This document shows, piece by piece, positions 6,240-63,046 of a stretch of 64,000 nt of DNA (position 1 is the stretch's first letter; the number at the start of each line of letters is the position of its first letter). Made by a program: the position numbers and the translations under genes. Source of the stretch: Blasia pusilla (lineage: Eukaryota); the NCBI GenBank assembly GCA_050084515.1, contig CM114271.1, positions 31,992,001-32,056,000 on the forward strand, in the 5' to 3' direction. The notes beneath the pieces are model-generated. The model saw nothing but the letters and a program-made list of their open reading frames with translations. It did no database searches and had not been told where the DNA came from.

Positions 6240-6242
6240 GTA

Positions 6243-6735: not shown

Positions 6736-6817
6736 TACAACCAACTTCTAGAGCTGAAGTTGTGTGGTGTTGGAGATTCAATTATACTTTGTGGGATGGA
6801 GTGAAGTCGACTACAAG

Positions 6818-20130: not shown

Positions 20131-20340
20131 TGGATGAGCACCGCTCAAGCCCCAACATGCTCCAATCTCTGTGCAATTGGAAAGGACGCCCCCTGATCGG
20201 TCTCCTCAAGATGGGCGCGGACGTCAACCTGTCCTTGAGCAACTGAAATGCTCGCTCTTGCTCATCCCCCCAGTGCCATTCGTGATCCACCTTGGTTAGC
20301 AAGGTTAGCGGCTTCGCAGTCGAACTGAATCCCTTGACGA
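20131..20340 (-). mobile_element. Gypsy RT/RNase H connection fragment
   Basis: [34 protein letters not shown], near-identical to 60506-60660. Confidence 0.85.
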
Positions 20341-20407
20341 GACCGTGTTCTTCAACGTGCTAAGAGGTATCAATTGGAGGGAACACATATTCTCCGTGTG
20401 TGGGAGG

Positions 20408-23400
20408 ATGGTAGATGGTAAATGGTAAATGATAAATAGATCAAGCCCGTGGGACCGAAAGGATCAAAAGGCTGAAAAACACATTACAAGTCATTCATGC
20501 ACTGACCCTGGAAAAGATCGTTAAGACCTTCTCCTAGCTACAACCTAGAGCACTTGAGCGATGAATAATGACGTCCCTAATATAACAACCTAAATCATAC
20601 AGCACTAGCTGTAGTAAAGAATAGAAATTCTCCACATCTATTTTATGAGCAAGTCTAATCTCTTCATACCTTGGACATGTAACAAACACATGCTCTTCAT
20701 CCTCAATATTTTCTCCGTCACATAACCTACAAATTCGTTCACTTCTATCAATTTTAAACCATCGTCCTTCCTCAATTCCTAGCCTATGTGACCCAGTTCT
20801 ATGACGTGCGATAATATGTCGTAAGAACGTAGAGATCCTTCCAAATAGGTATCCTTGTTCACAATATACAAGCATAGGATTAACATGAAGTTGATAAAAC
20901 TCCATTTTGGTGCCCGCACTGCTCCAAATGATGTTGAGAGATTGCTTTCAGAGATGCTCACGGAGGGCCATCGGTTTCAAGTCCCAATCGCGTTCGCCAC
21001 ATTCCACTTTGAAGACCAAGTCACCACATCCGCCATCCACCCTATGGAACGTGTGGCTCGCAAAGCTTGATGAGGGAGGCGAGAAACATCAAGAGATCTC
21101 ACCCTTGCGATGTAAGTGATGGTCAAGTAAAGAGCTTCAGCTTCTAGAGGAAGAAAACCTGTTTCCGCAAGAAGAATAGCATACGGAGTTTGGTTTTTAC
21201 ACCCAATTCTTCTTGTAGAAAGATCTTTTGCACTCTTTCCACGCGCTCCCAACTTGTCTTCTTACAACTAGGGCCCCAAACTTGGGTCCCATATAAGACC
21301 ACCGGCAACACTAAGCTCCTAAATAAGAATTTCCTAAGACTCCAAGACACAAGATGAGCTCTTCTACACCGGTTTAAAAATGAATATAGAGCTTTGTAAC
21401 CAGCTTCTACTCTCTTTTGCACGCAAAGTGCCCAACTATAGTCATGAGAGAAATCGATGCCTAGATATTTGTAACTCTTCACTTGTTCTAATTGTAGACC
21501 TTTGTAAAAGAACGAGAACTTGGATCTAGTACCCACTATAATGACTTTAGACTTGTCCATATTAACCTCCATCTGATTCTGGGTACAAAACCTTGCCAAA
21601 GTGTCGAGGTGCTTTTGTAAACTAATGCCATCACGTGCTAGTAATATGATATCATCTGCATACAATAGAGCTTTGATGACAAAGTCCCCAAGCTTGACCC
21701 CTTCACTATCACATTCCTCCAACCACTTTTCGATATCATCTATGAAAACTCCAAAAATTGTAGGGGAGAGAGGGCAACCTTGAATGACTCCAATGGTGCT
21801 CAAGATCTCTTGAGTTTGTGAACCTTTGATCTTGGCCCGAACGGAATGGTATAACGTGGCCACGGCTGCTAGGAGATTTTGTGGAACTCCAATGGCTTGC
21901 AGCCTTTCCCATAAGAGCTTGCGAGGTACAGTATCAAAAGCTTTCTTGAAATCGATGAAGCCGCAAAACAAAGCTTTTCCATTGCCCTTAGATTTCTCCC
22001 ATGAAACACGCAAGGCCAAGATATGATCGATGGTGTTGTATGTTGGACGAAAACCAGCTTGGACCCGTGCTCTCTTTTGGAAAGACTCTGTCCATGTGCT
22101 CAACTTCGACTCCACCAATTTCCCAAACAACTTGGCAAAAACACTACCCACCATGATAGTGCGATAGTTTGTTACCAAGTCCTTCCTTCCTGATTTGTGA
22201 ATAGGGACAATCTCCCGTAGCGACCAGGTTGAAGGAAAACCATAGATAGCAGCATCACCCAATAATTTGGTGAGGATCGGTCCAATACAATCTCCTCCCC
22301 ACTTGAAAAGTTCAATAGAAAGACCATCCAAATCCTCACATTTACCATTGGCCAATCTTCTGAGTTGAGTCATCACCTCTCCTTTGGAGAATAAGCCAGG
22401 TATTCCTCCACAACGTGACATAGATGTAGCATCGAGGAAGAAATAGAGCTTTTCGGCAAAAGATATCAAAGACTTGGGATCAAGAATAGGTTTTGAAGAC
22501 CGTACTACTAACCGTCTCCAAAATGATTTGGGGTCCTCATGCAGCTCCCTTGTCAAAGACTCTTGTTTCCGCCGCAAGAAAGCTCGTTTCTTAGATTTCA
22601 CCAAGTATTTGTAAAGGCTCGTCATAATAAGCCGACTTGGGATATCCAAAGATTTATCAACTGATCGTGCCCTTGCTTGCTTGCATTGAGTCAAACCACC
22701 CATTACAAGGCGACCTCCCGGCACTTCTATATCCTGGCGCGAAAAGAACTTAGATGCATTGTTTTTGAGCAATTCGGTTAGTTGCATACTTGCCGTGTTT
22801 GGATCCGGGCTCCATACAATGCGAGTCAAGTGTTCTTGTAAATGTAGCATATAAAGATCTTTTTTACCTGGATCTAAGCGAAACTTCGGAGAAGCTCAAA
22901 TAGATTGACATGTCGAGAGAGGAATGACCTTTGATAGTGAGAGAGTAAACAAAAGAGGTGCATGATCTGATTCAGGCTGAGGTTCTAGAATATCAAATTT
23001 AGAGATAAGAGAGCTATCAGCGGGCGAGGACAGAAGATAATCGATGGTGCTAGCGCCGGTAGAGGAGAAACACATATTGGAGTGAGAGTTGGGAAAATGA
23101 GAGGTTCCATTAAGAACTTTCAAATTACAAGTGCCTCCAAAGGTTAAAAAATGCTCTGTCAAAGGATTTGTACAAAGATCTGAAGATGTTCTAGACCACA
23201 AACCATCCTCATATTCTTCGAGAAGAGGAGAAATCAAGGAATCACTGAATTGGGTAAATTGAGCAGTACGTGTGCGAGCACTGAAATCTCCAACTAGAAA
23301 GACTTCACCTTTACTTTGATATTTGAGAACATCCCCAATAAGTCGATGGAACGGTTGACTTCGATAATGAGTGCGTGTTGAGTAGATAGGCATGGAGAGT

Positions 23401-24261
23401 GGTGCAAAATAACAAACTGCCAAATAACAATAAGATCCCCCAGCCAAACCAAGACGTAGCCAATGATATTGGCCCCCGATATCTTGATCTTCTAGATGAA
23501 TGAGAGGTAGAAATTGAGACCTGATGAAAGTAGCAATATCGCCATAACCCGTTCCTGCCCGTTGCCTTCTTTGATTCCATGTCGATCCCACCAAAGTAAA
23601 CCCTTGCATCTCTGCAATAGTATTGCTCTCATGTTCCCAAGTCTCCACAATATTGATAATATCTGCCATCTCCCAAATTGGTAGAGCACTCACATACTTT
23701 GTTGTTGAAAGGCCTCGTATATTCCACATCAACACTCTCAGCTTCTTGGATTGCTAGGTTGATAACTCTCTTTTTCTCTGAGTAACAATTGCTCGCTCAT
23801 CGCGTAGATAAGCAATAAAACCTGCTTCTTGAGCCTCTTTGACCTTTGCAAGCTCTTTTCTCCTAGCTTCGACTTGTAGAGGAGTGAGATTAGGATCCAA
23901 CCATATCCTTCGTCCTTTGAGAATGGCCTTGTTAGCCATGGCAGTATCACGTTGAGTTTGATCAACAAAATTGACTAGAATGGCACGAGGTTGTGTGCCC
24001 GTTTTCCCAATGCGAAAAGCTTGAGCCAAGTCCGGGTTATGAACATGAAGTGTATCAACCAAGAACTTGGTGACAACACTCTTCACCTCTTCGCTCTCTG
24101 TTTCCGGCAAACCTGAGATTCTCACATTCTTTCTACGCGCAAATTGGTTTTCTTTTTCTATCTCTTGCTCTTGACAGAAAGAGATATGAGCAACCTTTGA
24201 AGCTTCAGCATAAGATTTCATTTTCACTTCTAAAGTTTCAACAACCTCATGCAATCCTGAA
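20408..24261 (-). mobile_element. LINE copy 4, 5'-truncated in ORF1
   Basis: Tail ~20408-20440; ORF2 20534-23735; ORF1 part 23754-24254. Confidence 0.96.
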
Positions 24262-25141
24262 CAACTGAGTTATACACACGAAGTTGTGAGAGATTTGAGT
24301 TTCTGCACTTCTAGATTTGAGCATTTCAGATCTGAATCTTGCCGAGGCCATAACTTTGAGGTGGAGTGTCATATGAATCAGAGATTTGGAGGCAACGTGG
24401 AGTATAAGGAGGCGCCCTAGCCCTCAGATTTGCAAGCACAACCGAGTTATACACACGAAGTTGTGAGAGATTTGAATTTCTGCACTTCCAAATTTGAGCA
24501 TTTCAGATCTGAATATTTCCGAGGCCATAACTTTGAGGTGGACTGTCATATGAAGCTCAGATTTCAAGGTAACGTGGAATATAAAGAGGCGCTCTAGCTC
24601 TTAGATTTGCAAGCACAACCGAGTTATACACACGAAGTTGTGAGAGATTTGACTTTCTGCACTTCTAGATTTGAGCATTTCAGATCTGAATCTTTCCGAG
24701 GCCATAACTTTGAGGTGGAGTGTCATATGAATCTGAGATTAGGAGGCAACGTGGAGTATAAAGAGGCGCCATAGCCCTCAGATTTGCAAGCCTAATTGAG
24801 ATATACACACGAAGTTGTGAGAGATTTGAGTTTCCGCACTTCTAGATTTGAGCATTTCAGATCTGCATCTTTCCGAGGCCATAACTTTGAGGTGGAATGT
24901 CATATGAATGTGAGATTTGGAGGCAACGTGGAGTCTAAAGAGCCACCCTAGCCCTCAGATTTGCAAGCACAATCGAGTTATACACACGAAGTTGTGAGAG
25001 ATTTGAGTTTCTGCACTTCTAGATTTGAGCATTTCAGATCTGAATCTTGCCGAGGCCATAACTTTGAGGTGGAGTGTCATATGAATCTGAGATTTGGAGG
25101 CCACGTGGAATGTCTAGAGGCGTCATAATCCTAGAAATTTC
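24261..25141 (+). repeat. 177-bp tandem monomers x5
   Basis: Period 177 measured between AAGCACAACC-like starts. Confidence 0.95.
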
Positions 25142-28100
25142 AAGTACAACCAAGTTCTAGAGCAGAAGTTGTGTGGTGTTGGAGATTCAATTATACTTTT
25201 TCGGGATGCAAGTGAAGTCGACTACAGGATGACCACTCAAGACGAAATCTTGAATCTAGTGCAAGTCGTCTTGCATGAAGTTAAAGAGCTTCGACAAGAA
25301 ATTCAAGGTACAAACTTCTCAATTAAACCATGCACATATTCAAATCCGAGAGTTGAAGGCAACGCAAGAGGTTCTGAAGAAAGTGTTGAAAGATAGTTCT
25401 AGTGTGATCTTTGGATCTTTCCAAATCTGCTATGCGGATGTTCAAGAGAAGGCATCATCCTTGGTGACTACTCCCAATAGTTCAGGATTGCATGAGGTTG
25501 TTGAAACTTTAGAAGTGAAAATGAAATCTTATCTTTGAAGCTACAAAGGTTGCTCATATCTCTTTTGTCAAGAGCAAGAGATAGAAAAAGAAAACCAATT
25601 TGCGCGTAGAAAGAATGTGAGAATCTCAGGTTTGCCGGAAACAGAGAGCGAAGAGGTGAAGAGTGTTGTCACCAAGTTCTTGGTTGATACACTTCATGTT
25701 CATAACCCGGACTTGGCTCAAGCTTTTCGCATTGGGAAAACGGGCACACAACCTCGTGCCATTCTAGTCAAGTTTGTTGATCAAACTCAACGTGATACTG
25801 CCATGGCTAACAAGGCCATTCTCAAAGGACCAAGGATATGGTTGGATCCTAATCTCACTCCTCTACAAGTCGAAGCTAGGAGAAAAGAGCTTGCAAAGGT
25901 CAAAGAGGCTCAAGAAGCAGGTTTTATTGCTTATCTACGCGATGAGCGAGCAATTGTTACTCAGAGAAAAAGAGAGTTATCAACCTAGCAATCCAAGAAG
26001 CTGAGAGTGTTGATGTGGAATATACGAGGCCTTTCAACAACAAAGTATGTGAGTGCTCTACCAATTTGGGAGATGGCGGATATTATCAATGTTGTGGAGA
26101 CTTGGGAACATGAGAGCAATATTATTGCAGAGATGCAAGGGTTTACTTTGGTGGGATCGACATGGAATCAAAAAAGGCAACGGGCAGGAACGGGTTATGG
26201 CGGTATTGCTACTTTCATCAGGTCTCAATTTCTACCTCTCATTCATCTAGAAGATCAAGATATCGGGGGCCAATATCATTGGCTACGTCTTGGTTTCGTT
26301 GGGGGATCTTATTGTTATTTGGCACCACTCTCCATGCCTATCTACTCAACACGCACTCATTATCGAAGTCAACCGTTCCATCGACTTATTGGGGATGTTC
26401 TCAAATATCAAAGTAAAGGTGAAGTCTTTCTAGTTGGAGATTTCAGTGCTCGCACACGTACTGCTCAATTTACCCAATTCAGTGATTCCTTGATTTCTCC
26501 TCTTCTCAAGAATATGAGGATGGTTTGTGGTCTAGAACATCTTCAGATCTTTGTACAAATCCTTTTGTGAGCATTTTTAACCTTTTGAGGCACTTGTAAT
26601 TTGAAAGTTCTTAATGGAACCTCTCATTTTCCCAACTCTCACTCCAAATGTGTTTCTCCTCTACCAGCGCTAGCACCATTGATTATCTTCTATCCTCGCT
26701 CACGATAGCTCTCTTATCTCTAAATTTGATATTCTAGAACCTCAGCCTGAATCAGATCATGCACCTCTTTTGTTTACTCTCTCACTATCAAAGGCCATTC
26801 CTCTCTCGACATGTCAATCTATTTGAGCTTCTCCGAAGTTTCGCTTAGATCCAGGTAAAAAAGATCTTTATATGCTACATTTACAAGAACACTTGACTCG
26901 CATTGTATGGAGCCTGGATCCAAACACGGCAAGTATGCAACTAACCGAATTGCTCAAAAACAGTGCATCTAAGTTCTTTTCGCGCCAGAGGGATAGAAGT
27001 GCCAGGAGGCTGCCTTGTAATGGGTGGTTTGACTCTCAATGCAAGCAAGCAAGGGCACGATCAGTTGATAAATCTTTGGATATCCCAAGTCGGCTTATTA
27101 TGACGAGCCTTTACAAATACTTGGTGAAATCTAAGAAACGAGCTTTTCTTGGCGTAAAACAAGAGTCTTTGACAAGGGAGTGCATGAGGACCCCAAATCA
27201 TTTTGGAGACGGTTAGTAGTACGGTCTTCAAAACCTATTCTTGATCCCAAGTCTTTGATATCTTTTTTTAAAAGCTCTATTTCTTCCCGATGCTACGCGT
27301 CTATGCCACGTTGTGAAGGAATACCTAGCTTATTCTCTGAAGGAGAGGTGATGACTCAACTAAGAAGATTGGCGAATGGTAAATGTGAGGATTTGGATGG
27401 TCTTTCTATTGAACTTTTCAAGTGGGGAGGAGATTGTATTGGACCGATCCTCACCAAATTATTGGGTGATGCTGCTATCTATGGTTTTCCTTCAACCTAG
27501 TTGCTACGGGAGATTGTCCCTATTCACAAATCAGGAAGGAAGGACTTGGTAACAAACTATCGCACTATCATGGTGGGTAGTGTTTTTGCCAAGTTGTTTG
27601 GGAAATTGGTGGAGTCGAAGTTGAGCACATGGACAAAGTCTTTCCAAAAGAGAGCACGGGCCCAAGCTGGTTTTCGTCCAACATACAACACCATCGATCA
27701 TATCTTGGCCTTGCGTGTTTCATGGGAGAAATCTAAGGGCAATGGAAAAGCTTTGTTTTGCGGCTTCATCGATTTCAAGAAAGCTTTTGATATTGCACCT
27801 CATAAGCTCTTATGGGGGAAAGGCCGCAAGCCATTGGAGTTCCACAAAATCTCCTAGCAGCCGTGGCCACGTTATACCATTCCGTTCGGGCCAAGATCAA
27901 AGGTTCACAAACTCAAGAGATCTTGAGCACCATTGGAGTCATTCAAGGTTGCCCTCTCTCCCCTACAATTTTGGAGTTTTCATAGATGATATCGAAAAGT
28001 GGTTGGAGGAATGTGATAGTGAAGGGTCAAGCTTGGGGACTTTGTCATCAAAGCTCTATTGTATGCAGATGATATCATATTACTAGCACGTGATGGCATT

Positions 28101-29299: not shown

Positions 29300-30144
29300 A
29301 TCTTGAACATCGGCAACGGATTTGGAAAGATCGAGCATCACACTAGAACTATCTTTCAACACTTTCTTCAAAATCTCTTGCGTTGCCCTCAACTCTCGGA
29401 TTTGAATATGTGCATGGTTTAATTGAGAAGTTTGCACCTTGAATTCTTGTCGAAGCTCTTTCAATTCATGCAAGACGACTTGCACTAGATTCAAGATTTC
29501 ATCTTGAGTAGTCATCCTGTCCTCGACTTCACTACATCCTAGAAAGTATAATCAAATCTCCAACACCACACAACTTCTGCACTAGAAGTCGGTTGTGCTT
29601 GCAATTCTGAGGGCTAGGGTGCCTTCTTATACTCCACGTTTCCTCCAAATCTCAGCTTCATATGACACTCCACCTCAAAGTTATGGGCTCGACAAGATTC
29701 AGATCTGAAATCCTCAAATTTACAAGAGCAGAAACTAAAATCTCTCACAACTTCGTGTATATAACTCGGTTGTGTTTTCAATTCTGAGAGCTAGGGCACC
29801 TCTTTATATTCCACGTTGCCTCTAAATCTCAGCTTCATATGACACTCCACCTCAAAGTTATAGTCTCGGCAAGATTCAGATCTGAAATCCTCAAATCTAC
29901 AAGAGCAGAAACTCAAATCTCTCACAACTTCGTGTGTATAACTCGGTTGTGCTTGAAATTCTGAGGACTAAGGCACCTCCTTATACTCCACGTTGCCTCC
30001 AAATCTCAGCTTCATATGACACTCCACCTCAAAGTTATGGCCTCGGCAAGATTCAGATCTGAAATCCTCAAATCTACAAGAGCAGAAACTCAAATCTCTC
30101 ACAACTTCGTGTGTATAACTCGGTTGTACTTCGTGTATAACTCG
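29300..30144 (-). mobile_element. LINE copy 6 (diverged subfamily): about 3 monomers plus ORF1 start, cut by the tail of copy 5
   Basis: MTTQDEILNLVQVVLHELKELRQ 29515-29300; monomers ~29600-30128. Confidence 0.92.
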
Positions 30145-30295
30145 TCTTCCTCGGAAGGCAATGGCCGGCCGTAGCAACCATCGCGATTTGCACTGCAGTA
30201 AATGAGTATTCATCCATAGTGTAGCAACACGCCGTCGTTCGTCAGTGGAGCAACAACTCGCATAATTCTGCTTTTGAGTTCCTTTGAGTACGAGT

Positions 30296-32325
30296 AGTGC
30301 CACATTTGGCTCAGAGAGAGCGCATTGTGCGACATGCCCATGAGGAGTTGGGACATTTTGGGGTAAAGCGTACGTATAGCTTACTCCTTGGCCAGTATTG
30401 GTGGCGTGGCATGCATACTCAGGTGCAGCAGTTTGTGTCACGTTGTATGGTTTGTGACCGGGTGAGGGCATCATTCAATGCCCCTACACCACAATTACAC
30501 CCCTTGCCTATTATGGGGTTGGGTTACCGTTGGAGTGTGGACTTTGCGGGACCGTTACCGTTGACTGTACAACATCATCGATATGTGTTGGTGATGGTGG
30601 AGCACTTCTCCAAGTGGATTGAGTTGGTGGCATTACCGGACAAGGCAAGTGAGGAAACGGCGTATGCGTTTCTTGATAGAGTGCTTAGTCATTTTGGTGC
30701 ACCAACTGAAGTGCTGACCGACCAGGGTACAGAGTTTCAGGGTGAATTTCAGGTCTTGTGTGACAAGGCGTTGATTGATCATCGGACCACGTCTCGAGAT
30801 CATCCGAGGCGGATGGTTTGGCTGGCGTGTGGTTCGGGACGGTGAAGAGGGCATTGCGCAAATATGGCCTCTGAAGGGCATCTTGGAGACCTAGGATATT
30901 CAGCTGCCATGGTTAGCCATGGGGTATAGGTTGATCGCCAAGCATCCTTGGCTTCCTTCTCATCTTATTTTTGTTATACGGCCGAGATCCGGACTTGCCG
31001 CAGAATTCGTCGGGAGTCTAGTGAGGTGGTGAACCTTGATGACCCAGAGATGTGGATGAGGATGTGTTCTCAGCGAGCGGAGCTCTTTCGGAGAGTTATG
31101 CCAACAGCCTTTGAGAATCTTGCCATTGCTCAACACAGGGATACGTTGCGGTATGCAACCATTCGGGGTGGAGGTTATCGACCATCGATTCGTAGGTTCC
31201 ATGTGGGGGACTATGTCTATTTGCAGCAGATTGCACCGACAACGTTGGATATGACGGCGGGCCGCACTATTTTACGAGTGCGCGAGGTGTTAGCTTCTGG
31301 AGTTCTCATGTTGGAGGGTCGTGATGGAGTTGTTTGGAAGGACCATGTGCGTAATTGTGCGCCATGTCATCTTCCAAATGTGGATGGTAGTGTTAACCCA
31401 AGCTTAGCCATGATACGTGCTAGTTTGAGGTGCATGTTGTGTGGGTCTGTTGGTAACGCAGCTCGTATGTTGGTGTGTGATCGGTGTTCTAGGGGTTGGC
31501 ACATGATGCGTTTGACTCCACGTATGGATGTTGTTCCTACTGGAAGGTGGGTTTGTCCTCGATGTACTTAGGAGAGGTAGATGACTTGATCTTTGCATGA
31601 TATGGATTACAGATGTGCGACTAACAATGGGGCAACCTAGCACCCGGCCTTCTGATTCGGGCACCCAAGAAGGAGTATAGCATGTAGTAGATGTATAGGG
31701 CTACCTAGGAGTTAGAGGGACCTAACCACCAATTAGGGGGCGAGTTGTGGTACACTTGTGTTTGTGGATGCTCTCGTCTATGTTATGTATGTATGTGAGT
31801 ATGGTATGTCAGCGATGTATGTTGTATGACGATGTGGATTCGCACGACAGCTGTCATGACCATACGGATTATGTCGTAGAGTATAGTGTGCTAGTAGAGG
31901 CCATTCCTTATGTAGGACCGTAGTGGCTTGGTAGAGATGCGGTTTCATACATAGGGTTGGGGGTTACTCAATTGGGGGTGACTTTCCCAGTAGGGCCCGC
32001 TCTTAGGTTGGAGGATATAAGGTGGAGTGCACTCAAAGAACAGTCAGTTCTTTGAGTTGAGCTTGTTGCGTTGGGAGTTAGCCTTGGTAGTGAGTAGAGC
32101 TCTTGGCTATGGTGTTTCCCGCAAGCTTCGACCTAGATTCTCCCATCGTGGAGTGGGTTTGGCTCGATTGTATGTGATTCTATACGTGTTTTATGACAGT
32201 AGGTCTTTCACGGATTTCAGTTGTGGTACACTTGTGTTTGTGGATGCTCTCGTCTATGTTATGTATGTATGTGAGTATGGAATGTCAGCGATGTATGCTA
32301 TATGACGATGTGGATTCGCACGACA
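30296..32325 (+). mobile_element. Gypsy-type family 1, 3' half: integrase + PHD finger, PPT and A-B-A terminal repeats
   Basis: HEELGH..C..C zinc finger, VDFAGP, TDQGTEF; C-terminal CxxC..CxxC..H..C..W.CxxC PHD-like ending at 31571; purine tract ~31731-31744; ends in ...GCACGACA. Confidence 0.9.
31744..32325 (+). repeat. Split direct repeat terminus A(31744-31849)-gc-B(31852-32219)-A(32220-32325)
   Basis: Two near-identical 106-bp A units; the 368-bp B unit matches 61957-62324 (minus). Confidence 0.93.
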
Positions 32326-32697
32326 GCAGCCATAACGAGTGATAATCATCTCGTATAAAAATTTGGCCACTGCTTTGCTGTCATCTTTGTGCGTGGCCAC
32401 CGCCTCGACCATCTTAGTACAATAGTCGGTGGCTATGAGAATATACTTCCGCCGTGTTTGGCGAGTAGCGGGGGAGATAGGTCCTACAAAGTCAATACCC
32501 CATTTTTCAAAAGGGGCTAGGGGCATGATAGGTACCAAAGGCCACCGCGAGGTTGCCGTGGGTCGACCTGCTCTTTGACACGCATCACAACTCTGGATAA
32601 AGTGACCTACACCTTTGTACATAGTTGGCCACCAATAACGTGCGGCCAAGATTTTCTTGACAGTATTTTTTACCGCATAATGTCCACCAGAATCTAA
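32326..32697 (-). mobile_element. Host gypsy integrase fragment (zinc finger to rve N-half)
   Basis: GGHY..YWWP..CDACQR..WGIDFVGP..TDYCTK..TRYGC; continues in frame at 62325 (CPLELVSDRGTHF). Confidence 0.9.
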
Positions 32698-32723
32698 GGA
32701 TGTCAGCATGCAGACATCCTTAG

Positions 32724-34215
32724 CGTCTTTGCACCGTACTTGCTACTTTATGGCCGAGAGCCAGATTTACATGCGGCCATTCGTCAAGATGTTGGTGAGG
32801 TGCTGGACCTTGATGACCCAGATGTATGGATGCGAGCATGTTCTCATAGGGTTGAATTGTTTTGGAGAGTGATGCCCATGGCGTTCGAGAACTTGGCGAT
32901 TGCGTAGCATTAGGATACGTTGAGGTATGCGACTATTCGGGGTGGTGATTATCGACCAACTATCCGGAGGTTTCATCAAGGAGATTATGTCTACTTGCAG
33001 CAGACGGCATCGACGACGTTGGATGTGATTGCAGGGCGCACTATCCTGAGAATGCGTGACGTTTTGCCATCCGGTGTTCTCTTGCTGGAGGGACACGATG
33101 GTATGGCATGGAAGGACCATGTGCGTAATTGTGCGCCATGTCACCTTCCTAACATTGATGGTACAGTAGATCTGAGCTCAACAGTAGTTCTTGTAGGCTT
33201 GCGTTGTATGTTGTGTGGTTCTGCTCGTGCTGCGGCCACGATGCTAGTATGTGATGGATGTTCGAGAGGTTGGCATATGGCATGTCTGACGCCACCTTTC
33301 ACTAAGGTTCCTCGAGGACAATGGATGTGTCCCAGATGTACATAGAGGAGATATTAGGTAGGTTTCGATTCCAACTTTTTCTGTGACATGGATGATTGGA
33401 AGGCGACTAACGATGGGGCCACATGAGCACCCGGCCTTTATGCTCTTAGCATCCTAGAGATGTATGTCATGGTAGGTAGGGATAGATGGCTATCTGGAGT
33501 TAGAGGGACCTAACCACCAGCTAGTGGGGTGATTGGAGATATTTTGGTACTTCTCGCCTCTGTGTATGGATGTCATGAGTTAGCATGGGATCGTGTGTGT
33601 TTGTGTGTGTGTTCGATGACAGCGATGTATGTTGTGTAGCGATGTGTACACGCACGACACTTGTCATGATTATTAGGATAGATCAGTGGGATCTAGCAGA
33701 ATGTCTGCACGAATAGTGGAGGACAAGCCCATGATGTCGAGGATGATCTGTTGAAGCCCAGGGAAACCTGAGAGAGCAGGTTTCCCCTTCGTTTCGGCTC
33801 ATTTGGAGCCATATTGATGATCTTGCTATTTTAGGTAAGTACCATTTTGAGTATCTGATCGACTTTCTATTATTGGTACATGGTCCTTGACCTCCTACAT
33901 CAGGTCAAGAGCCAGGGAGATGACTTGGGAGAATAGGTTACCATAGAGAGAGCTTGGGAGAGGGGAGGGGTTTACCTCAAGGAGAGAGAGCTTGAGAGCT
34001 CATTCTCTCTTTATTGAACCTCTTAGCATGAGGCGTTGGAACTATGGTCTTGCTTGCCTTGTGTGTGTAACCCAAGCCTCTCATTAGGAGAGTGGTTTTG
34101 GTTTGACATTGAGAGAGACATATGAGAGTGCACACATGTGAGAACTATGGTATTGTGAGAGAGATTGGATCTTATTTTATTGGAGATATTTTGCTACTTC
34201 TCACCTCTGTGTATG
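32724..34215 (+). mobile_element. Gypsy-type family 2, 3' end: integrase C-terminus + PHD, A'(33532-33659)-ct-B'(33662-34178)-A'(34179-, cut by LINE)
   Basis: ORF 32920-33345 with an intact C4HC3 PHD; the same CACGACA-nn-TGTCATGA junction as family 1. Confidence 0.88.
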
Positions 34216-37200
34216 AAGCACAACCGAGTTATACACACGAAGTTGTGAGACATTTGAGTTTCTGCACTTCTAGATTTGAGCATTTCAGATCTGAATCTTG
34301 CCGAGGCCATAACTTTGAGGTGGAATGTCATATGAATCTGACATTTGAAGGCGACGTGGAGTATAAAGAAACGGCCTAGCCCTCAGATTTGCAAGCACAA
34401 CCAAGTTATACACACGAAGTTGTGAGAGATTTGAGTTTCTGCACTTCCAGATTTGAGCATTTCAGATCTGAATATTCCGAGACCATAACTTTGAGGTGGA
34501 GTGTCATATGAAACTGAGATTTCAAGGTGACGTGGAGTATAAAGAGGCTCCCTAGCCCTCAGATTTGCAAGCACAATTGAGATATACACACGAAGTTGTG
34601 AGAGATTTGAGTTTCCGCACTTCTAGATTTGAGCATTTCAGATCTGAATCTTTCCGAGGCCATAACTTTGAGGTGGAATGTCATATGAATGTGAGATTTG
34701 GAGGCAACGTGGAGTCTAAAGAGCCGCCCTAGCCCTCAGATTTGCAAGCACAATCGAGTTATACACACGAAGTTGTGAGAGATTTGAGTTTCTGCACTTC
34801 TAGATTTGAGCATTTCAGATCTGAATCTTGCCGAGGCCATAACTTTGAGGTGGAGTGTCATATGAATCTGAGATTTGGAGGCCACGTGGAATGTCTAGAG
34901 GCGTCATAATCCTAGAAATTTCAAGTACAACCAAGTTCTAGAGCAGAAGTTGTGTGGTGTTGGAGATTCAATTATACTTTCTGGGATGCAGTGAAGTCGA
35001 CTACAGGATGACCACTCAAGACGAAATCTTGAATCTAGTGCAAGTGGTCTTGCATGAAGTGAAAGATTCTCGACAAGAATTCAAGGTACAAATTTCTCAA
35101 TTAAACCATGCACATATTCAAATCCGAGAGTTGAAGGCAACGCAAGAGGTTCTGAAGAAAGTGTTGAAAGATAGTTCTAGTGTGATGCTGGATCTTTCCA
35201 AATCTGTTGCGGATGTTCAAGAGAAGGCATCATCCTTGGTGACTACTCCCAATAGTTCAGGATTGCATGAGATTGTTGAAACTTTAGAAGTGAAAATGAA
35301 ATCTTATGCTGAAGCTACAAAGGTTGCTCATATCTCTTTCTGTCAAGAGCAAGAGATAGAAAAAGAAAACCAATTTGCCCGTAGAAAGAATGTGAGAATC
35401 TCGAGTTTACGGAAAAGAGAGCGAAGAGGTGAAGAGTGTTGTCACCAAGTTCTTGGTTGATACACTTCATGTTCATAACCCGGACTTGGCTCAAGCTTTT
35501 CGTATTGGGAAAACGGGCATACAACCTCGTGCCATTCTAGTCAAGTTTGTTGATCAAACTCAACGTGATACTGCCATGGCTAACAAGGCCATTCTCAAAG
35601 GACGGAGGATATGGTTGGATCCTGATCTCACACCTCTACAAGTCGAAGCTCGGAGAAAGGAGCTTGCAAAGGTCAAAGAGGCTCAAGAAGCAGGTTTTAT
35701 TGCTTATCTACGTGATGGTCGAGCAATTATTACCCAGAGAAAAAGAGAGTTATCAACCTAGCAATCCAAGAAGCTGAGAGTGTAGATGTGGAATATACGA
35801 GGCCTTTCAACAACAAAGTATATGAGTGCTCTACCAATTTGGGAGATGGCGGATATTATCAATATTGTGGAGACTTGGGAACATGAGAGCAATACTATTG
35901 CAGACATGCAAGGGTTTACTTTGGTAGGATCGACATGGAATCAAAGAAGGCAACGTGCAGGAAGGGGTTATGGCGGTATTGCTACTTTCATCAGGTCTCA
36001 ATTTCTACCTCTCATTCATCTAGAAGATCAAGATATCGGGGGTCAATATCATTGGCTACGTCTTCGTTTGGTTGGGGGATCTTATTGTTATTTGGCAGTT
36101 TGTTATTTTGCACCACTCTCCATGCCTATCTACTCAACACGCACTCACAATCGAAGTCAACCGTTCCATCGACTTATTGGGGATGTTCTCAAATATCAAA
36201 GCAAAGGTGAAGTCTTTCTAGTTGGAGATTTCAATGCTCGCACACGTCATCGCTCAATTTACCCAATTCAGTGATTCCTTGATTTCTCCTCTTCTCAAGA
36301 ATATGAGGATGGTTTATGGTCTAGAATCTCTTGAGATCTTTCTACAAATCCTTTGTGAGTATTTTTAACCTTTGGAGCCACTTGTAATTTGAAAGTTCTT
36401 AATGGAACCTCTCATTTTCCCAACTCTCACTCCAATACGTGTTTCTCCTCTCTGGCGCTAGCACCATCGATTATCTTCTGTCCTCGCCTACGATAGCTCT
36501 CTTATCTCTACATTTGATATTCTAGAACCTCAGCCTGAATCAGATCATGCACCTCTCTTGTTTACTCTCTCACTGTCAAAGGAAATTCCTCTCTCGACAT
36601 GTCAATCTATTTTAGCTTCTCCCAAGTTTCGCTTAGATCCTGGTAAAAAAGATCTTTATATGCTACATTTACAAGAACACTTGACTCGCATTGTATGGAG
36701 CCCTGATCCAAACACGGCAAGTATGCAACTAACGGAATTGCTCAAAAACAGTACATCTAAGTTCTTTTCGCGCCACTAGGATAGAAGTCCTAGGAGGCTG
36801 CCTTGTAATGGGTGGTTTGACTCTGAATGCAAGCAAGCAAGGGCACGAGCAGCTGATAAATCTTTGGATATCCCAAGTCGGCTTATTATGACGAGCCTTT
36901 ACAAATACTTGGTGAAATCTAAGAAACGAGCTTTCTTGCGGCGAAAACAAGAGTCCTTGACAAGGGAGCTGCATGAGGACCCCAAATCATTTTGGAGACG
37001 GTTAGTAGTACGGTCTTCAAAACCTATTCTTGATCCCAAGTCTTTGATATCTTTTGCCGAAAAGCTCTATTTCTTCCCCGATGCTACGTCTATGCCACGT
37101 TGTGAAGGAATACGTGGCTTATTCTCTGAAGGAGAGGTGATGACTCAACTAAGAAGATTGGCGAATGGTAAATGTGAGGATTTGGATGGTCTTTCTATTG

Positions 37201-39500: not shown

Positions 39501-42201
39501 TTACGTGGCATAGACGTAGCATCGGGGAAGAAATAGAGCTTTTCGGCAAAAGATATCAAAGACTTGGGATCAAGAATAGGTTTGAAGACCGTACTAATAA
39601 CCGTCTCCAAAATGATTTGGGGTCCTCATGCAGCTCCCTTGTCAAGGACTCTTGTTTTCGCCGCAAGAAAGCTCGTTTCTTAGATTTCACCAAGTATTTG
39701 TAAAGGCTCGTCATAATAAGCCGACTTGGGATATCCAAAGATTTATCAGCTGCTCGTGCCCTTGCTTGCTTGCATTGAGTCAAACCACCCATTACAAGGC
39801 GACCTCCTAGCACTTCTATCCCAGTGGCGCGGAAAGAACTTAGATGCACTATTTTTGAGCAATTCCGTTAGTTGCATACTTGCCGTGTTTGGATCAGGGC
39901 TCCATACAATGCGAGTCAAGTGTTCTTGTAAATGTAGCATATAAAGATCTTTTTTACCAGGATCTAAGCGAAACTTGGGAGAAGCTAAAATAGATTGACA
40001 TGTCGAGAAAGGAATTTCCTTTGACGGTGAGAGAGTAAACAAGAGAGGTGCATGATCGATTCAGTGAGGTTCTAGAATATCAAATGTAGAGATAAGAGAG
40101 CTATCGTGCAAGCGAGACAGAAGATAATCGATGGTGCTAGCGCCAGAGAGGAGAAACACGTATTGGAGTGAGAGTTGGGAAAATGAGAGGTTCCATTAAG
40201 AACTTTCAAATTACAAGTGGCTCCAAAGGTTAAAAAATACTCTGTCAAAGGATTTGTAGAAAGATCTGAAGAGATTCTAGACCATAAACCATCCTCATAT
40301 TCTTCGAGAAGAGGAGAAATCAAGGAATCACTGAATTGGGTAAATTGAGCAGTACGTGTGCGAGCATTGAAATTTCCAACTAGAAAGACTTCACCTTTGC
40401 TTTGATATTTGAGAACATCCCCAATAAGTCGATGGAACGGTTGACTTCGATTGTGAGTGCGTGTTGAGTAGATAGGCATGGAGAGTGGTGCAAAATAACA
40501 AAGCGCCAAATAACAATAAGATCCCCAACCAAACCAAGGCGTAGCCAATGATATTGACCCCGATATCTTGATCTTCTAGATGAATGAGAGGTAGAAATTG
40601 AGACCTGATGAAAGTAGCAATACCGCCATAACCCCTTCCTGCCCGTTGCCTTCTTTGATTCCATGTCGATCCTACCAAAGTAAACCCTTGCATCTCTGCA
40701 ATAGTATTGCTCTCATGTTCCCAAGTGTCCACAATATTGATAATATCTGCCATCTCCCAAATTGGTAGAGCACTCACATACTTTGTTGTTGAAAGGCCTC
40801 GTATATTCCACATCTACACTCTCAGCTTCTTGGATTGCTAGGTTGATAACTCTCTTTTTCTCTGGGTAACAATTGCTCGTCCATCACGTAGATAAGCAAT
40901 AAAACCTGCTTCTTGAGCCTCTTTGACCTTTGCAAGCTCCTTTCTCCTAGCTTCGACTTGTAGAGGTGTGAGATTTGGATCCAACCATATCCTCCGTCCT
41001 TTGAGAATGGCCTTGTTAGCCATGGCAGTATCACGTTGAGTTTGATCAACAAACTTGACTAGAATGGCACGAGGTTGTATGCCCGTTTTCCCAATACGAA
41101 AAGCTTGAGCCAAGTCCGGGTTATGAACATGAAGTGTATCAACCAAGAACTTGGTGACAACACTCTTCACCTCTTCGCTCTCTGTTTTCCGGTAAACTGA
41201 GATTCTCACATTCTTTCTGGGCAAATTGGTTTTCTTTTTCTATCTCTTGCTCTTGTGAGAAAGAGATATGAGCAACCTTTGTAGCTTCAAAGATAAGATT
41301 TCATTTTCACTTCTAAAGTTTCAACAACCTCATGCAATCCTGAACTATTGGGAGTAGTCACCAAGGATGATGCCTTCTCTTGAACATCCCATAATAGATT
41401 TGGAAAAGATCCAAAGATCACACTAGAACTATCTTTCAACACTTTCTTCAGAACCTCTTGCGTTGCCTTCAACTCTCGGATTTGAATATGTGCATGGTTT
41501 AATTGAGAAGTTTGTACCTTGAATTCTTGTCGAAGCTCTTTAACTTCATGCAAGACGACTTGCACTAGATTCAAGATTTCGTCTTGAGTGGTCATCCTGT
41601 AGTCGACTTCACTGCATCCCAGAAAGTATAATTGAATCTCCAACACCACACAACTTCTGCTCTAGAAGTTGGTTGTACTTGAAATTTCTAGGATCAAGAC
41701 GTTTCTAGACATTCTACGTGGAGTCCAAATCTCAGCTTCATATGACACTCCACCTCAAAGTTATGGCCTCGGCAAGATTCAGATCTGAAATGCTCAAATC
41801 TAGAAGTGCAGAAACTCAAATCTCTCACAACTTCGTGTGTATAACTCGATTGTGCTTGCAAATCTGAGGGCTAGGGCACCTCTTTATACTCCACGTCGCC
41901 TCCAAATCTCAGCTTCATGTGACACTCCACCTCAAAGTTATGGCCTCGGAAAGATTCAGATCTGAAATGCTCAAATCTAGAAGTGCAAAAACTCAAATCT
42001 CTCACAACTTCGTGTGTATAACTCGGTTGTGCTTGCAAATCTGAGGGCTAGGGCACCTCTTTATACTCCACGTTGCCTCCAAATCTCAGCTTCATATGAC
42101 ACTCCACCTCAAAGTTATGGCCTCGGCAAGATTCAGATCTGAAATGCTCAAATCTAGAAGTGCAGAAACTCAAATCTCTCACAACTTCGTGTGTATAACT
42201 C
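39501..42201 (-). mobile_element. LINE copy 8, 5' half (3 monomers, ORF1, endonuclease), 3'-truncated
   Basis: Monomers ~41680-42201; ORF1 41595-40838; APE domain from 40813 downwards. Confidence 0.94.
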
Positions 42202-43345: not shown

Positions 43346-43964
43346 CCAATGGTGTCATCGCCTCCACTCTAGAAGCTCAATTGTCACTAAATTCCATCTC
43401 CTCCAAGATGAAGGAACAACTCCAGGCCTGCCTCATAAGGTTATTTGCACTCCTTTTCAAATCACAACTCATACCACAACCACAACGGTAAAGAGATTTT
43501 AATAGCATGGGAAGAGACACCCATCATGGCATGTCTCTCCATGGGACTATCCGCCATCAGGATGTCCTCTGCATGTGCATTCCCCTCCAACAACTCTCTT
43601 CACCCGTTAGCACCATTTGTATGTGCTCCCAACGTGATCACCGTATAGTCATGTGGTCAATCACCTCGTTCTGCAAATTGCACAAGTAACAAACTCATCC
43701 GAGCATAAGCAACGGACTCCTTAAAAAATCTAGGATGAATCTTAGGGGTTATAATATCGTATTATCTATTGACACATCGTATAACTTTGTTGTTGTAGCA
43801 ATCGCACATGTACGTACCATAGCACTATTCGTGTAATGCTCCGACTGAACTTTAACAACTACGTGTTGTTGAATGATGTACTACATGGGTGACAATTGAA
43901 GTGAGCCAAATTCAAAAAATGATAACCTCAACACAACCCTTCCTACCCATAAATGTTAAAATGA

Positions 43965-50459: not shown

Positions 50460-52650
50460 TGTCGTGCACATACACATCGCTACACAACATACATACATAC
50501 ATACATACATACATCGTTGTCAACGAACATACACACAAACACGCACGATCCCATGCTAACTCATGGCATCCAAATAACGAGACAAGAAGTACCAAAATAT
50601 CTCCAATAAATCAAGTAGATCTCTCTCAACATTTCACACCAATCTCTCCATGGTGTGCACTCTCTCTCATGTCAACCCAAACCCACTCTCCTAATGAGAG
50701 GCTTGGGTTACACACACAAGGCAAGCAAGACCATAGCTTTGCCACTTCATGCCAAGAGATTCAACAAAGAGAGAATGAGCTCTCAAGCTCTCTCTCTTGG
50801 AGGTATATCCCCTTCCCTCTCCCAAGCTCTCTCCTCAGTAACCTATGCTCGCAGGTCATCTCCTTAGATGCCATATGCCACTTTCTTGAATACCCATCAT
50901 ACACTAGCATAGTGGCTGCACCATGGGCAGAGCCGCACAACATGCATCGCAAGCTTGCACGAACTACTGCTAAGCTCGAATCAACTGTACCGTCAATGTT
51001 AGGAAGGTGACCTGACGCACAATTATGCACATGGTCCTTCCAAACCATACCATTACATCCCTCCAATAAGAGGATACCAGATGGCTAAACCTCACGCACT
51101 CTCAAGATAGTGCGCCCTATATTCACGTCCAACGTCGTAGATGCCGTCTGTTGCAAAATAGACATAATCTCTCTGATGAAACCTCCGAATAGTAGGTTGA
51201 TAATCACCTTCTCGAATAGCTGCATACCTCAACATATCCCAATGTTGCGCAATCGCCAAGTTCTCAAACGCCATGGGCATCACTCTCCAAAACAACTCAG
51301 CCCTCTGAGAGCATGCTCGCATCCATACATCAGGGTCATCAAGGTTCAACACCTCACCTACATCTTGATGAATGGCCGAAGGTAAATCTGGCACTCGGCC
51401 ATAAAGTAGCAAGTACGGTGAGAAAGATGTATGTTTGCTGAATATGTATCTCATCGCCAACTGGAGGTCCCAATCTCCTAGGTGACCTCTTTGCAAGCCA
51501 TAATTGCACAATCCTCTCTTCACCGTCTGCACAACCCTCTCCGCTAGTCCATCCGCCTTAGGATGATCCCGCAAAGTGGTGAGGTGGTTGATCATCGCCT
51601 AATCACACAAGGCCTGAAACTCCCCACAAAACTCTGTACCCTGGTCTATCAACACCTCAGCTGGTGCGCCGTAATGACTCAGCACTTTATCTAGGAAGGC
51701 ATACGCTACTCCCTCACTCGATTTGTCACGCAATGCAACCAAATCTATCCACTTCAAGAAGTGCTCGACCATCACCAACACATAACGACTATGGCGCTCT
51801 GTCAAAGGTAACGGTCTTGCAAAATCCAAACTCTATCTATAACCTAAACCCATGATCGAAAGTGGATGCAACTATGGAATCGGAGCATTGAACGATGCCC
51901 ATACCCAATCACAAACCATGCACATGGCAACAAACTGTTGAACGTCAGTCTTCATACCTCGCCACCAATACTATATCTGGAGCAAGTTGTACGTCCGCTT
52001 TACTCCAAAATGACCCAACTCCTCGTGGACATGACGTACCAAACATGCTCTCTATGAAGGATGAGGCACTACACATATTCTACCATCCTCCCAAACTTGC
52101 AACACATGTGTCCCCTCCCACCGGAACCGTCTGGCTAGCTGTAGGATCTGATCCCATTCTCTAGCATCCACTGTGCTCGCAACGCTGCTAGTACGCAAGT
52201 ACTCCAAGAGCACTCCATCGTCGTGCATGTCTCGGCCATCTGTCGTCTCCTCACCTGCCTCTGGATCTAAGGACTCTCCATCAGACCTCGCCATCGAAGT
52301 CTCAGCAATCTGGCTCTCTATGGCCAACAAGCCCAAATAGGATGACGCATGTCATCCTGGCATCAACTCCTCATCACTCTCACCATGCCAACGAGCTCTT
52401 GTCGCATCTCGCTGACTCGAGCATGGGTTAAGGCTCAAACCATCTGCATCTTGGTTGAGCGTCCCAGGTCTATGCACCACCTTGAAGTCATACTAGTGCA
52501 ACAAAAGAGCCCACCTCGCAAGCTTCCCTGTAAACTTGTCGGACTCCATCAACCACTTAAGTGGTTGATGATCAGTAATGATGGTAAAGGGGTTTCCGAG
52601 TAGTTAACACCTAAAATGTGTGACAACCCACACCGCATCCGAGCACTCTT
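50460..52650 (-). mobile_element. Gypsy-type family 2 copy: RNase H, integrase, truncated PHD, B'-A' terminus
   Basis: DFARPLP, IDQGTEF, DHPKADGLAERVVQT; a deletion joins PHD to B'; ends ...GCACGACA at 50460. Confidence 0.88.
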
Positions 52651-60505: not shown

Positions 60506-62324
60506 GACGCCCCCTGATCGGTCTCCTCAAGATGGGCGCGGACGTCAACCTGTCCTTGAGCAACTGAAATGCTCGCTCTTGCTCATCCCCCCAGTGCCAT
60601 TCGTGATCCACCTTGGTCAGCAAGGTTGGCGGCTTCGCAGTCGAACTGAATCCCTTGACGTTCCGCCGCTAGAAGTTTGCCAATCCCATGAATGCGCAAA
60701 CACAACTCACATTTGTAGGGCGTGGAATGCGTGAGATAGCCTCTACCTTTGTCTGTTGAACACCAAGGACCCTTGGGTATATTGTATGACCCAAGTACTC
60801 AATCTGGTCGTAGAAGAACTTGCACTTTCTTGGATGTAGCTTCAGCCTAAGTAATTGCAATCGTCGAAACACCTCCTCTAGATGTCGCTCATGCTCCTTA
60901 ACCGTGGCGCTAAAGACTACGATGTCATCAATATAATACCTAGAAAAATCCAAACCAGCCAAGATCCTATCCATGACCCTCTGAAACTCAACCGGGGCGT
61001 TCTTTAACCCAAATGGTAAGAACCGCCACTGGTACAAACAATCCTTCCCGTGAGGATCGATGCCCCAAAATGTTGTCTTTTGCATGTCCTCCAATCTGAT
61101 AGGCAGCTGATGGTATCTAGCTTGCAAATCCAATGAACTGAAAATCTTTGCGTGACCAATTGCATCAAAGATCTCCTCAGGGGTGGGCATGGCATACCTA
61201 TCGAACTTCGTCTGCCGATTGATAGGTCGGTAATCCCTACACACCCGCCTATCCGTCCAGTTGCCATGCACATCCTTCTTGGCAGGCATGACAGTGGCAG
61301 ATGCATACTCCCCATGCAACATCTCTACTAGTCCTAGCTCCTAATCTGAATCAGAGCCCTCTCCATATCACTATACCTGTAGTCACCAACCAACTAGACC
61401 CTCCGGTCCGCTGTCCACCATAGCTAGTCCGCAAAATTTTGATCGACAATTACTTCACAAAAAATCAGCTACAACCGAGCTCTGTACTCCGAGCTAAAAA
61501 TCAGACAAACTTGCTGTCCATACACCTCCAGAATCGCAAATCCGACAGCGCTTCCGCCAAGTTTCATGCGCACAAAAATCCGCAACGCTCCACACACTCG
61601 AGCAGATAGCTTCACATGAGATCACAATACAAGTAGCAATAGGAACCTCTCACCCAATCTAGATGAACTTCAACAGAGCTTCCGCACTCCAAGCTCTCCA
61701 CATCAGAAAACCGTCGAACACGAACCAGAATCTTCAATCCTCGATAACTTCCAACTACCTTGACGAAATCCGGCAATCTAAGACGCCTTGGAAAGCTCTT
61801 AGCAAGGCGCTTCCTTCCAACCAACCACGCACCAGATTCACACCTCCAACATAGGCCACAAGCCACGAACATCCATGGCTGAGTACACAATCAGCCCTAA
61901 CAAGATCCTACTGATCTACAATCGAAGCTACCATCGATCTACTCCAGTTCTTTGAGTGAAATCCGTGAAAGACCTACTATCATAAAACACATATACAATC
62001 ACATACAATCGAGCCAAACCCACTCCACGATGGGAGAATCTAGGTCGAAGCTTGCGGGAAACACCATAGCCAAGAGCTCTCCTCACTACCAAGGCTAACT
62101 CCCAACGCAACAGGTTCAAGTCAAAGAACTGACTGTTCTTTTAGCGCACTCCACCTTATATCCTCCAACATAAGAGCGGGCCCTACTGGGAAAGTCACCC
62201 CCAACTGAGTAACCCCCAACCCTATGTATGAAACCGCTTCTCTACCAAGCCACTACGGTCCTACATAAGGAATGGCCTCTAATAGCACACTATACCCTAC
62301 GACATAATCCGTATGGTCATGACA
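60506..62324 (-). mobile_element. Gypsy-type family 1, 5' half: terminal B repeat, leader, (gag deleted), RT and connection domain
   Basis: B 61957-62324 starts TGTCATGAC; RT ORF 60669-61322 with YIDD; flanked by the GCAG TSD shared with 32326-32329. Confidence 0.9.
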
Positions 62325-63046
62325 CTGCCCATTGGAATTAGTAAGTGATCGGGGCACTCACTTCTTAAACAAGACTATTGAGTCTCTCACTTCCCACTTT
62401 TTGATTAAGCATCGGAAAACCACGCCCTACAACCCTAAAGCCAACGGGTTGACGGAAAAATCTAACGGCCTGATCTGCCGGATATTGAATCGATTGACGG
62501 TCACCTATTCCTATGATTGGGACATGAAAATCTCCGCGGCATTGTGGGCATACCAAACAGCGGAGAAGGTCACGACAAAGCATACCCCGTTCTTCCTGAC
62601 TTATGGCGTTCATCCCTTAACCCCTATTGAATGGGCTTTGCCCACTTATCGAGTACTGGAAGGAACGAGAACGGAGGCCGTCAACAAAGTTTTCCAAGGA
62701 AGGAATGAGACCTTAGTTGCGTTGGAAGAAGCACGCACGTTGGCGTTACGCTAGACGAAACAGGTGCAAAAAGCACGCAAACAACGTTACGATCGACATC
62801 TCCGGCCACAATCTATAAGCGTGGGAGACTTGGTGCTGTTGTACGATAACCGGCGACTCAAGTTCCCCGGAAAATTAAAATTAAATTGGATGGGGCCCTA
62901 CTGGGTATTGGCCATCTATGATAATGGATCCCTAGAGTTGGGGACCTTAAAGAGAGAATCCCTGCCCACGCGGGTCAATGGAATGCATGTGCGTCAGTAT
63001 TATGAGCCTCAACCTTATGCGGACTGAAACAGGAGGAAGGGGGGTA
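62325..63046 (+). mobile_element. Host gypsy integrase C-half and purine tract
   Basis: CPLELVSDRGTHF, YNPKANGLTEK, TPFFLTYG, GDLVLL..KLKLNWMGPY; AGGAGGAAGGGGGG after the stop at 63027. Confidence 0.9.

Follow-up and report, generated by a model that had tools for sequence, protein, structure and literature searches.

The 64,000-nucleotide stretch of Blasia pusilla contig CM114271.1 analysed here (the window) carries a retroelement, E1, which is a decayed copy, internally deleted and rearranged after insertion, of a bryophyte Ty3/gypsy-type lineage. Two identical long terminal repeats (LTRs) around an internal region, the gypsy hallmark, are absent from it: E1 has a single repeat B at its 5′ end and A-NN-B-A at its 3′ end, where NN is a 2-bp spacer. 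This split arrangement, B...A-NN-B-A with TG..CA ends and a 4-bp target-site duplication (TSD), is the normal full form of the family. As to how it arises, the reading put forward here (with a probability of roughly 0.6) is that the two ends of the complementary DNA (cDNA) are joined and that integrase then cuts an encoded CA-NN-TG junction, giving B...A-NN-B-A together with the 4-bp TSD.

Repeats and insertion site of E1

At the 3′ end of E1, repeat A is present twice (97.2% identity over 106 bp, E 1e-47), and the copy of B between the two matches a second B on the minus strand (96.2% identity over 368 bp, E 1e-174). The positions are as follows, with the polypurine tract abbreviated as PPT and the relative E2 described in the next section.

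61957..62324, minus strand: 5′ copy of B (368 bp), with the left terminus of E1, TGTCATGACC, at 62324
61386..61956, minus strand: non-coding leader, about 570 bp, its first 12 nt (CTCAAAGAACTG) at 61956-61945
31733..31743, plus strand: PPT ttagggggcga, adjoining A1 on its upstream side and kept in E2 and related loci
31744..31849, plus strand: repeat A1, 106 bp, 3′ end CACGACA
31850..31851, plus strand: 2-bp spacer gc, centre of the junction CACGACA-gc-TGTCATGA
31852..32219, plus strand: 3′ copy of B, with TATA-like ATATAAG at 32015-32021 and the hairpin CTCAAAGAAC-agtca-GTTCTTTGAG at 32032-32056
32220..32325, plus strand: repeat A2, right terminus of E1 (...CACGACA), with nearly no RNA reads

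These alignments bear out, with exact coordinates, the A1-gc-B-A2 3′ end and the lone 5′ B that an earlier note on this DNA had described. The outer termini read gcag followed by TGTCATGACC on the left and CGCACGACA followed by gcag on the right, and the internal junction, CGCACGACA-gc-TGTCATGACC, consists of the same two sequences, just as the note had said. The termini of the E1 lineage are of the TG...CA type (TGTCATGA...CACGACA).

E1 is inserted in the integrase gene of a host gypsy element, which is split as shown here (P0027 is a polyprotein used for alignment).

32326..32329, plus strand: TSD copy gcag, flanking A2
62325..62328, plus strand: TSD copy, ctgc on the plus strand and GCAG in element orientation
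32326..32742, minus strand: host gypsy integrase, N-terminal part (Integrase_H2C2, rve profile positions 3-61)
62326..62754, plus strand: host integrase, C-terminal continuation (PLELVSDRGTHF...), beginning at P0027 residue 709

In pairwise alignment the N-terminal part (32742-32326, minus) matches P0027 up to residue 707/708 and the C-terminal part from 709 onward (the C-terminal part alone gave no Pfam match at E 0.001, and pairwise alignments were used instead). Excising E1 along with one copy of the 4-bp duplication rejoins the host integrase frame exactly. Restoration of the frame and the GCAG duplication together mean that a single insertion event accounts for both ends of E1, and here too the earlier note was right.

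With 30 kb between them and on opposite strands, the two ends show that a rearrangement followed the insertion. According to tblastn with liverwort polyproteins, the 3′ part is itself in two pieces, 20338-20415 and then 30286-32325, with LINE-like units and 177-bp tandem repeats filling the 9.87 kb between them. The consensus of loose read ends at 30286 matches 20386-20415, which confirms the continuity of the split part. The first piece ends in a head-to-head joint at 20338, where the E1 linker meets an RNase H fragment (20338-20147, minus). A 155-bp start of the E1 RNase H is present in two copies, 20185-20339 and 60506-60660 (98.7% identity), one at each rearrangement breakpoint, and this suggests a duplication-associated inversion or two copies of a composite.

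The layout in related loci

The family was surveyed in 80 related metagenome loci, found with the integrase C-terminal/PHD region at about 40-83% identity (39% for the scored element of L030). A 3′ end was scorable when the first A was present with at least 12 nt beyond it, as in 47 of the 80 loci (L051 was re-read by eye). NN-TGTCATGA followed the first A in 19 of these 47 loci and other sequence in 28. Full A-NN-B-A was found in 14 loci. Merging loci with common flanks gave these distinct 3′ ends:

7 distinct ends: full A-NN-B-A
2 distinct ends: contig stops before A2
2 distinct ends: A-NN-B, then the inverted first ~166-190 nt of B
21 distinct ends: PPT-A directly followed by flank
1 distinct end: deletion from the PHD region into mid-B

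The layout extends to diverged families, namely L030 (with the junction TCATGACA-gt-TGTCATGC), L075/76 and L078; the junction of L080 is perfect (CGTGACA-gc-TGTCACG). The 2-bp spacer differs among relatives (GC, AC, AT, TC, CT, GT). The window itself holds a second example, E2, which repeats the order PPT-A-NN-B-A and whose last A is truncated at 34216 by a 177-bp repeat block:

32732..34215, plus strand: E2, a ~70%-identical relative, with integrase C-terminal/PHD region, PPT, A′ 33534-33659, spacer ct, B′ 33662-34180 and A″ 34181-34215

The PPT adjoins A, and not B, in E1, E2 and the related loci. At the 5′ end, all 12 loci that have B upstream of the leader motif show unrelated host DNA, then B, then the leader (CTCAAAGAAC...) directly; an A before or after this B was found in none of the 12, and E1 likewise lacks one. 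Nine elements have both ends visible, and seven of them have a perfect 4-bp TSD:

Perfect TSDs: E1 GCAG; L013 TCTC; L018 CATA; L007 TGTT; L009 ACTA; L014 TACA; L052 ATTA
Imperfect TSDs: L006, 3 of 4 positions; L056, none matching

The earlier note had named, as a result that would speak against its reading, a majority of conventional copies (AB...AB or BA...BA). With B alone at every 5′ end and with these TSDs, the related loci show something else.

RNA of the family

In two raw RNA runs with a species label identical to that of the best DNA run, sense RNA depth was 74-190 from the integrase through the PPT, A1, gc and B, and 7-10 in the bin that holds A2 (32187-32323), which is about what the end of B alone would give. 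The joint from the end of B into the leader (CTCAAAGAACTAGAGTAGATCG) occurs in 28 RNA reads (X22) and in 8 DNA contigs (X2), and it is the same joint as at the 5′ end of E1. The family RNA contains PPT-A-NN-B and passes from the end of B straight into the leader, without A2.

A pile of read starts at 32013 was considered as the transcription start and set aside as unproven: the TATA-like box is downstream of it, and conservation between families has its edge there (B position 162). Three joints were seen in RNA only. One skips 96 nt over the PPT and half of A1 (31695-31792; 10 + 7 reads), one goes back 289 nt inside B (32169 to 31881; 4 + 6 reads) and one skips 494 nt in E2, from before the PPT into B′ (33478-33973; 4 + 8 reads). 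Deletion variants that are expressed, or artefacts of template switching, may account for them.

Coding content and family identity

The coding remains of E1 are the following, where RT stands for reverse transcriptase.

60507..61385, minus strand: RT and N-terminal RNase H (P0027 residues about 24-323)
20338..20415, plus strand: linker before the integrase (P0027 residues 545-570), located by tblastn and loose read ends
30286..30845, plus strand: integrase, H2C2 zinc domain and DDE core (rve), 89% identity to P0027 residues 571-743
30930..31571, plus strand: integrase C-terminal region with a PHD finger at its end (PF00628, E 1.5e-8)

The 5′ part thus runs from B through the leader into RT from about residue 24, with gag, protease and DNMT missing; the DNMT open reading frame (ORF) at 60503-59581 is part of another, 74%-identical element and not of E1. 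Pfam matches in the window ORFs are RVT_1, RT_RNaseH_2, Integrase_H2C2, rve and the PHD finger, and those in P0027 are RVT_1, RT_RNaseH, RT_RNaseH_2, Integrase_H2C2 and rve, in the gypsy order RT - RNase H - integrase (by tblastn). The domains in E1 and its relatives agree with the gypsy-type assignment and DDE integrase of the earlier note. The profile search for a tyrosine recombinase that it had suggested found no Phage_integrase match in 12 window ORFs and the polyproteins P0004, P0002, P0027 and P0024.

The nearest proteins in protein searches come from Marchantia polymorpha, Calypogeia fissa and Sphagnum. The polyprotein frames of L014 and L036 are interrupted by stops, so the architecture was read from annotated liverwort proteins, whose order is gag (with a CCHC knuckle), a protease motif (D-S-G-A), DNMT, RT, RNase H and integrase. 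In a full relative the coding set is gag (CCHC), protease, a C5 DNA methyltransferase of the Dnmt3 type, RT, RNase H, DDE integrase and PHD finger. PF00145 is present in P0004 and P0002, and for P0004 all 25 of 25 PDB matches are DNMT3A, 3B or 3C.

The place of the DNMT domain varies. It lies between protease and RT in the liverwort proteins P0002 and P0004, and between RNase H and integrase in the distant relatives P0032 and P0034, which likewise end in integrase and PHD; the domain has either been relocated or been gained twice. A further DNMT-coding fragment in the window (42414-43469, minus; 37-39% identity to Marchantia proteins) stands beside a 177-bp array and belongs to yet another related element.

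A candidate replication route

Under standard reverse-transcription rules, the positions of the PPT and of the primer site imply that the LTR of the cDNA is A-NN-B. The RNA would start inside the 5′ B; on the left the cDNA would begin with the first base of A, as set by the PPT, and on the right it would finish with the last base of B, as set by the primer site that adjoins B. The B/A2 joint is absent from the RNA, yet copies start at B and end at A, so this joint would have to be made anew in every cycle. In the reading preferred here it would come from the joining of the two cDNA ends, through ligation to a 2-LTR circle or an end-to-end template switch by RT. Integrase would then cleave the encoded palindromic, U5/U3-like CA-NN-TG instead of the cDNA termini, and this cleavage would yield the integrated B...A-NN-B-A with its 4-bp TSD. 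Joining followed by cleavage is favoured because the palindrome resembles a U5/U3 circle junction and retroviral integrases are reported to cut such junctions: passages in PMC1180852 and PMC1905944 describe cleavage of the palindromic LTR-LTR junction by foamy-virus and HIV-1 integrases.

The sequence of the B/A2 joint bears on the joining step. In most copies, the base before the primer site is fused precisely to the base after the PPT. Exceptions are L013, with a 17-nt insert along with 2-3 extra bases of the PPT, L017/22, with an 830-bp insert and 7 nt of A2 lost, and the E2 family, with variable letters at this joint in DNA contigs. Such variable and inserted letters are what joined cDNA ends typically show.

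The 830-bp insert sits exactly at the joint, at 1579-2411 of L017 and 1725-2557 of L022. It resembles stretches inside or beside other copies (L052 6343-7096, L056 3437-4094 and L050 6751-7456).

Minus-strand synthesis probably begins by self-priming of the Tf1 kind, with CTCAAAGAACTG as the putative primer site. This start of the leader (the 10-12 nt after B) is complementary to CAGTTCTTTGAG in B, the 3′ arm of a conserved hairpin; the copies conserve the complementary pair CTCAAAGAAC(TG) / (CA)GTTCTTTGAG. Some copies have snap-back 3′ ends, in which B is followed by the reverse complement of B from the hairpin back to the start of B, and then by flank (L001 1283-1798, L016 3361-3878 and L020 1412-1929; right terminus ...GGTCATGACA; two or three distinct insertions). 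The turn sits exactly at the leader/hairpin complementarity. Ends of this form are the product expected of a fold-back there, which points to self-priming. The snap-back form also gives inverted terminal repeats reminiscent of DIRS-1.

A broader step can be entertained, tentatively and at somewhat less than even odds: in a whole DDE lineage of bryophytes, and probably of charophytes, integration sites may have shifted away from the cDNA termini and onto an encoded internal palindrome of U5/U3 type. End joining would then be an obligatory step of productive transposition, and integrase would act on the palindrome as a site-specific cutter.

Weighing the route

Several observations weigh against joining and cleavage as set out above. 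The primer complementarity is the same sequence in all copies, with almost no covariation (only in L056). Of the 31 distinct related 3′ ends, 21 terminate at the first A, and four of these have a good TSD. The related loci are short-read metagenome contigs, not from the genome of the window, and the RNA reads stem from all family copies of at least 90% identity and not from E1 itself. Clipping may explain the pile of read starts at 32013, so the RNA start is not fixed by it. Neither a circular nor a joined-end cDNA was seen.

A further point concerns the 5′ end. The earlier note had proposed that a 2-LTR circle is opened at a site inside the LTR. One part of this stands: the layout is that of an A-NN-B LTR permuted at its internal junction, and the RNA fits. 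The symmetric opening is not established, since a circle with two identical junctions is expected to give also a B-A-NN-B-leader form at the 5′ end, and this was found in none of 12 loci. Together, the 21 of 31 A-only ends, the two snap-back ends and the missing B-A-NN-B form mean that the route is more complicated than the one in the note or that it is masked by later A × A recombination. Three readings remain: A × A recombination after integration (along with even faster B × B recombination), use of internal junctions on linear cDNA, and partial collapse of A1 and A2 in short-read assembly. The A-only ends could be either frequent integrase use of the first junction (dead-end copies), or A1 × A2 recombination, or assembly collapse. 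No allelic site with both A-only and A-NN-B-A forms was found among the loci, and no flanks were common to the two classes (only 10 nt for L054 and L012).

The most probable of the alternatives, itself unlikely, dispenses with the circle. Linear cDNA of the form A-NN-B...A-NN-B would be cut at its internal junctions, and the default product would be B...PPT-A without repeats; A-NN-B-A would arise only where RT had continued past the end of B onto another start of A, and the snap-backs would come from plus-strand fold-back. This accounts jointly for the 21 A-only, 7 A-NN-B-A and 2 snap-back distinct ends as well as for the absence of B-A-NN-B at the twelve 5′ ends, and the snap-back copies do imply a cut at an internal CA far inside the cDNA end. 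However, a copy terminating at the first A has no means of remaking the upstream half of B, which would leave most integrations sterile, and the A-only copies are equally obtainable by A1 × A2 recombination or assembly collapse. Cuts 108 and 370 nt from the cDNA ends would also be needed, for which no precedent was encountered.

Far less probable is a conventional LTR of the form B-A, with the 5′ A deleted and an extra A duplicated by chance before the 3′ LTR. In its favour, B-A has, like a normal LTR, the better of the terminal inverted repeats (TGTCATG / CACGACA), but A is missing at 12 of 12 related 5′ ends, the PPT adjoins A in E1, E2 and the loci, and the B/A2 joint is absent from the RNA. 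Least credible are two others. A local origin of A-B-A, by recombination, duplication or misassembly of a single conventional LTR element, might be suspected in a region so strongly rearranged and nested, yet the layout recurs in E2, in 7 distinct metagenome insertions and in diverged families, and the joint of B and leader is family-wide in DNA contigs and RNA reads. Integration of a DIRS/Ngaro-like element through a tyrosine recombinase, whether its own or one provided in trans, would suit a repeat layout like that of PAT and Ngaro (compare the DIRS-like repeats in a legend of PMC5890265). Against it stand the lack of any Phage_integrase match in the 4 polyproteins and 12 window ORFs, the H2C2 and DDE integrase domains, and TG...CA termini with a 4-bp TSD in 7 of 9 elements.

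Other repeats in the window

A third relative, E3, has lost part of its 3′ region:

50460..52080, minus strand: E3, with integrase, PHD, a deletion into mid-B′, the 3′ half of B′, and A; its end at 50460 reads CACGACA followed by gattgg

A similar deletion, from the end of the PHD coding sequence into mid-B with loss of the PPT, A1 and the junction, is present in E3 (50872/50863) and at the L042/L048 locus (L042 1537-1541, L048 3317-3321). Tandem arrays of the 177-bp repeat lie at 6150-6803, 24163-25173, 29456-30131, 34122-34954, 41536-42201 and 54102-55163. They form the ends of a repeated unit of ~4.2 kb that encodes a LINE-type endonuclease and RT (for example the ORF at 55536-57323, minus). 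These LINE-like units occur in both orientations, often head-to-head, and interrupt E1, E2 and E3.

Significance

Split direct repeats have so far been treated as a hallmark of tyrosine-recombinase retrotransposons, and here they are paired with a DDE integrase, TG...CA ends and a TSD, in families only about 40-60% identical in the integrase C-terminal/PHD region. The elements offer a natural system for asking whether a retroviral-type integrase can have an internal palindrome as its normal substrate and how untranscribed termini are regenerated. A Dnmt3-type methyltransferase and a PHD finger of their own bear on the interplay between transposons and host chromatin. On the practical side, LTR finders that expect two identical LTRs may miss or mis-call such elements in bryophyte genomes. 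If integration sites have indeed moved to the palindrome, the family would be a natural case of the old model of circle-junction integration, with that route made obligatory, and split repeats of the DIRS/Ngaro type would have evolved independently of tyrosine recombinases.

Comparison with known systems

The earlier note knew of no description of such an element, and on this point it was mistaken. De Mendoza et al. (2018, Nat Commun 9:1341, PMC5890265) reported KnitGypsy-Dnmt3 from Klebsormidium nitens, a gypsy element with a Dnmt3 domain in its Pol ORF, and the legend to Fig. 4c of that paper assigns to it the repeat structure of a DIRS element and the domain composition of a gypsy element. 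The same paper describes SymbioDIRS-Dnmt3 as A-coding-B-A-B. Its main text gives no termini, TSD, junction sequence or replication model for KnitGypsy-Dnmt3. Like the E1 family, KnitGypsy-Dnmt3 is gypsy-type, has a Dnmt3-type methyltransferase in its polyprotein and shows DIRS-like repeats (one 5′, three 3′, going by the legend); unlike it, the host is a charophyte alga and not a bryophyte. No Klebsormidium-named protein was among the 27 and 26 protein-search matches, and the link is therefore one of shared features. In literature searches the name KnitGypsy was found in PMC5890265 only. A search on split direct repeats and integrase retrotransposons returned no title pointing to DDE-integrase elements (judged by titles); passages retrieved for Marchantia, DNMT3 and Gypsy held nothing relevant, and a broader search on DIRS-like and Gypsy elements added nothing.

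Elements of the DIRS order (Ngaro, PAT) also have one repeat at one end and three at the other, with an internal joint that juxtaposes both termini and with termini that are partly untranscribed. The difference is in the enzyme and its traces: they encode a tyrosine recombinase, whereas the E1 family combines an H2C2/DDE integrase with TG...CA ends and 4-bp TSDs. DIRS-order elements are not known to make a TSD.

For priming, the nearest likeness is to Tf1/sushi and plant Tcn1 elements, in which, according to passages in PMC6317226, the site adjoining U5 has a short complementarity with the 5′ part of R and there is no obvious tRNA-type primer site; self-priming is predicted there for the Tcn1 elements of mosses and club-mosses. 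The comparison is by features, and it has a limit in that those elements have ordinary LTRs and a chromodomain, in contrast to the PHD finger and split repeats of the E1 family.

The 2-LTR junction of foamy virus and HIV-1 (PMC1180852 and PMC1905944) resembles the E1 junction: a CA-spacer-TG palindrome, made where U5 and U3 ends meet, is an internal substrate of integrase there and, in the proposed route, would be one here. The retroviral junction, however, forms solely when cDNA ends are ligated and provides at most an accessory route, whereas in the E1 family the palindrome is encoded in every LTR and marks the ends of all integrated copies. E1 is a bryophyte example of a kind of element that had already been flagged, to which the details of junction, TSD, RNA and variant ends are added here.

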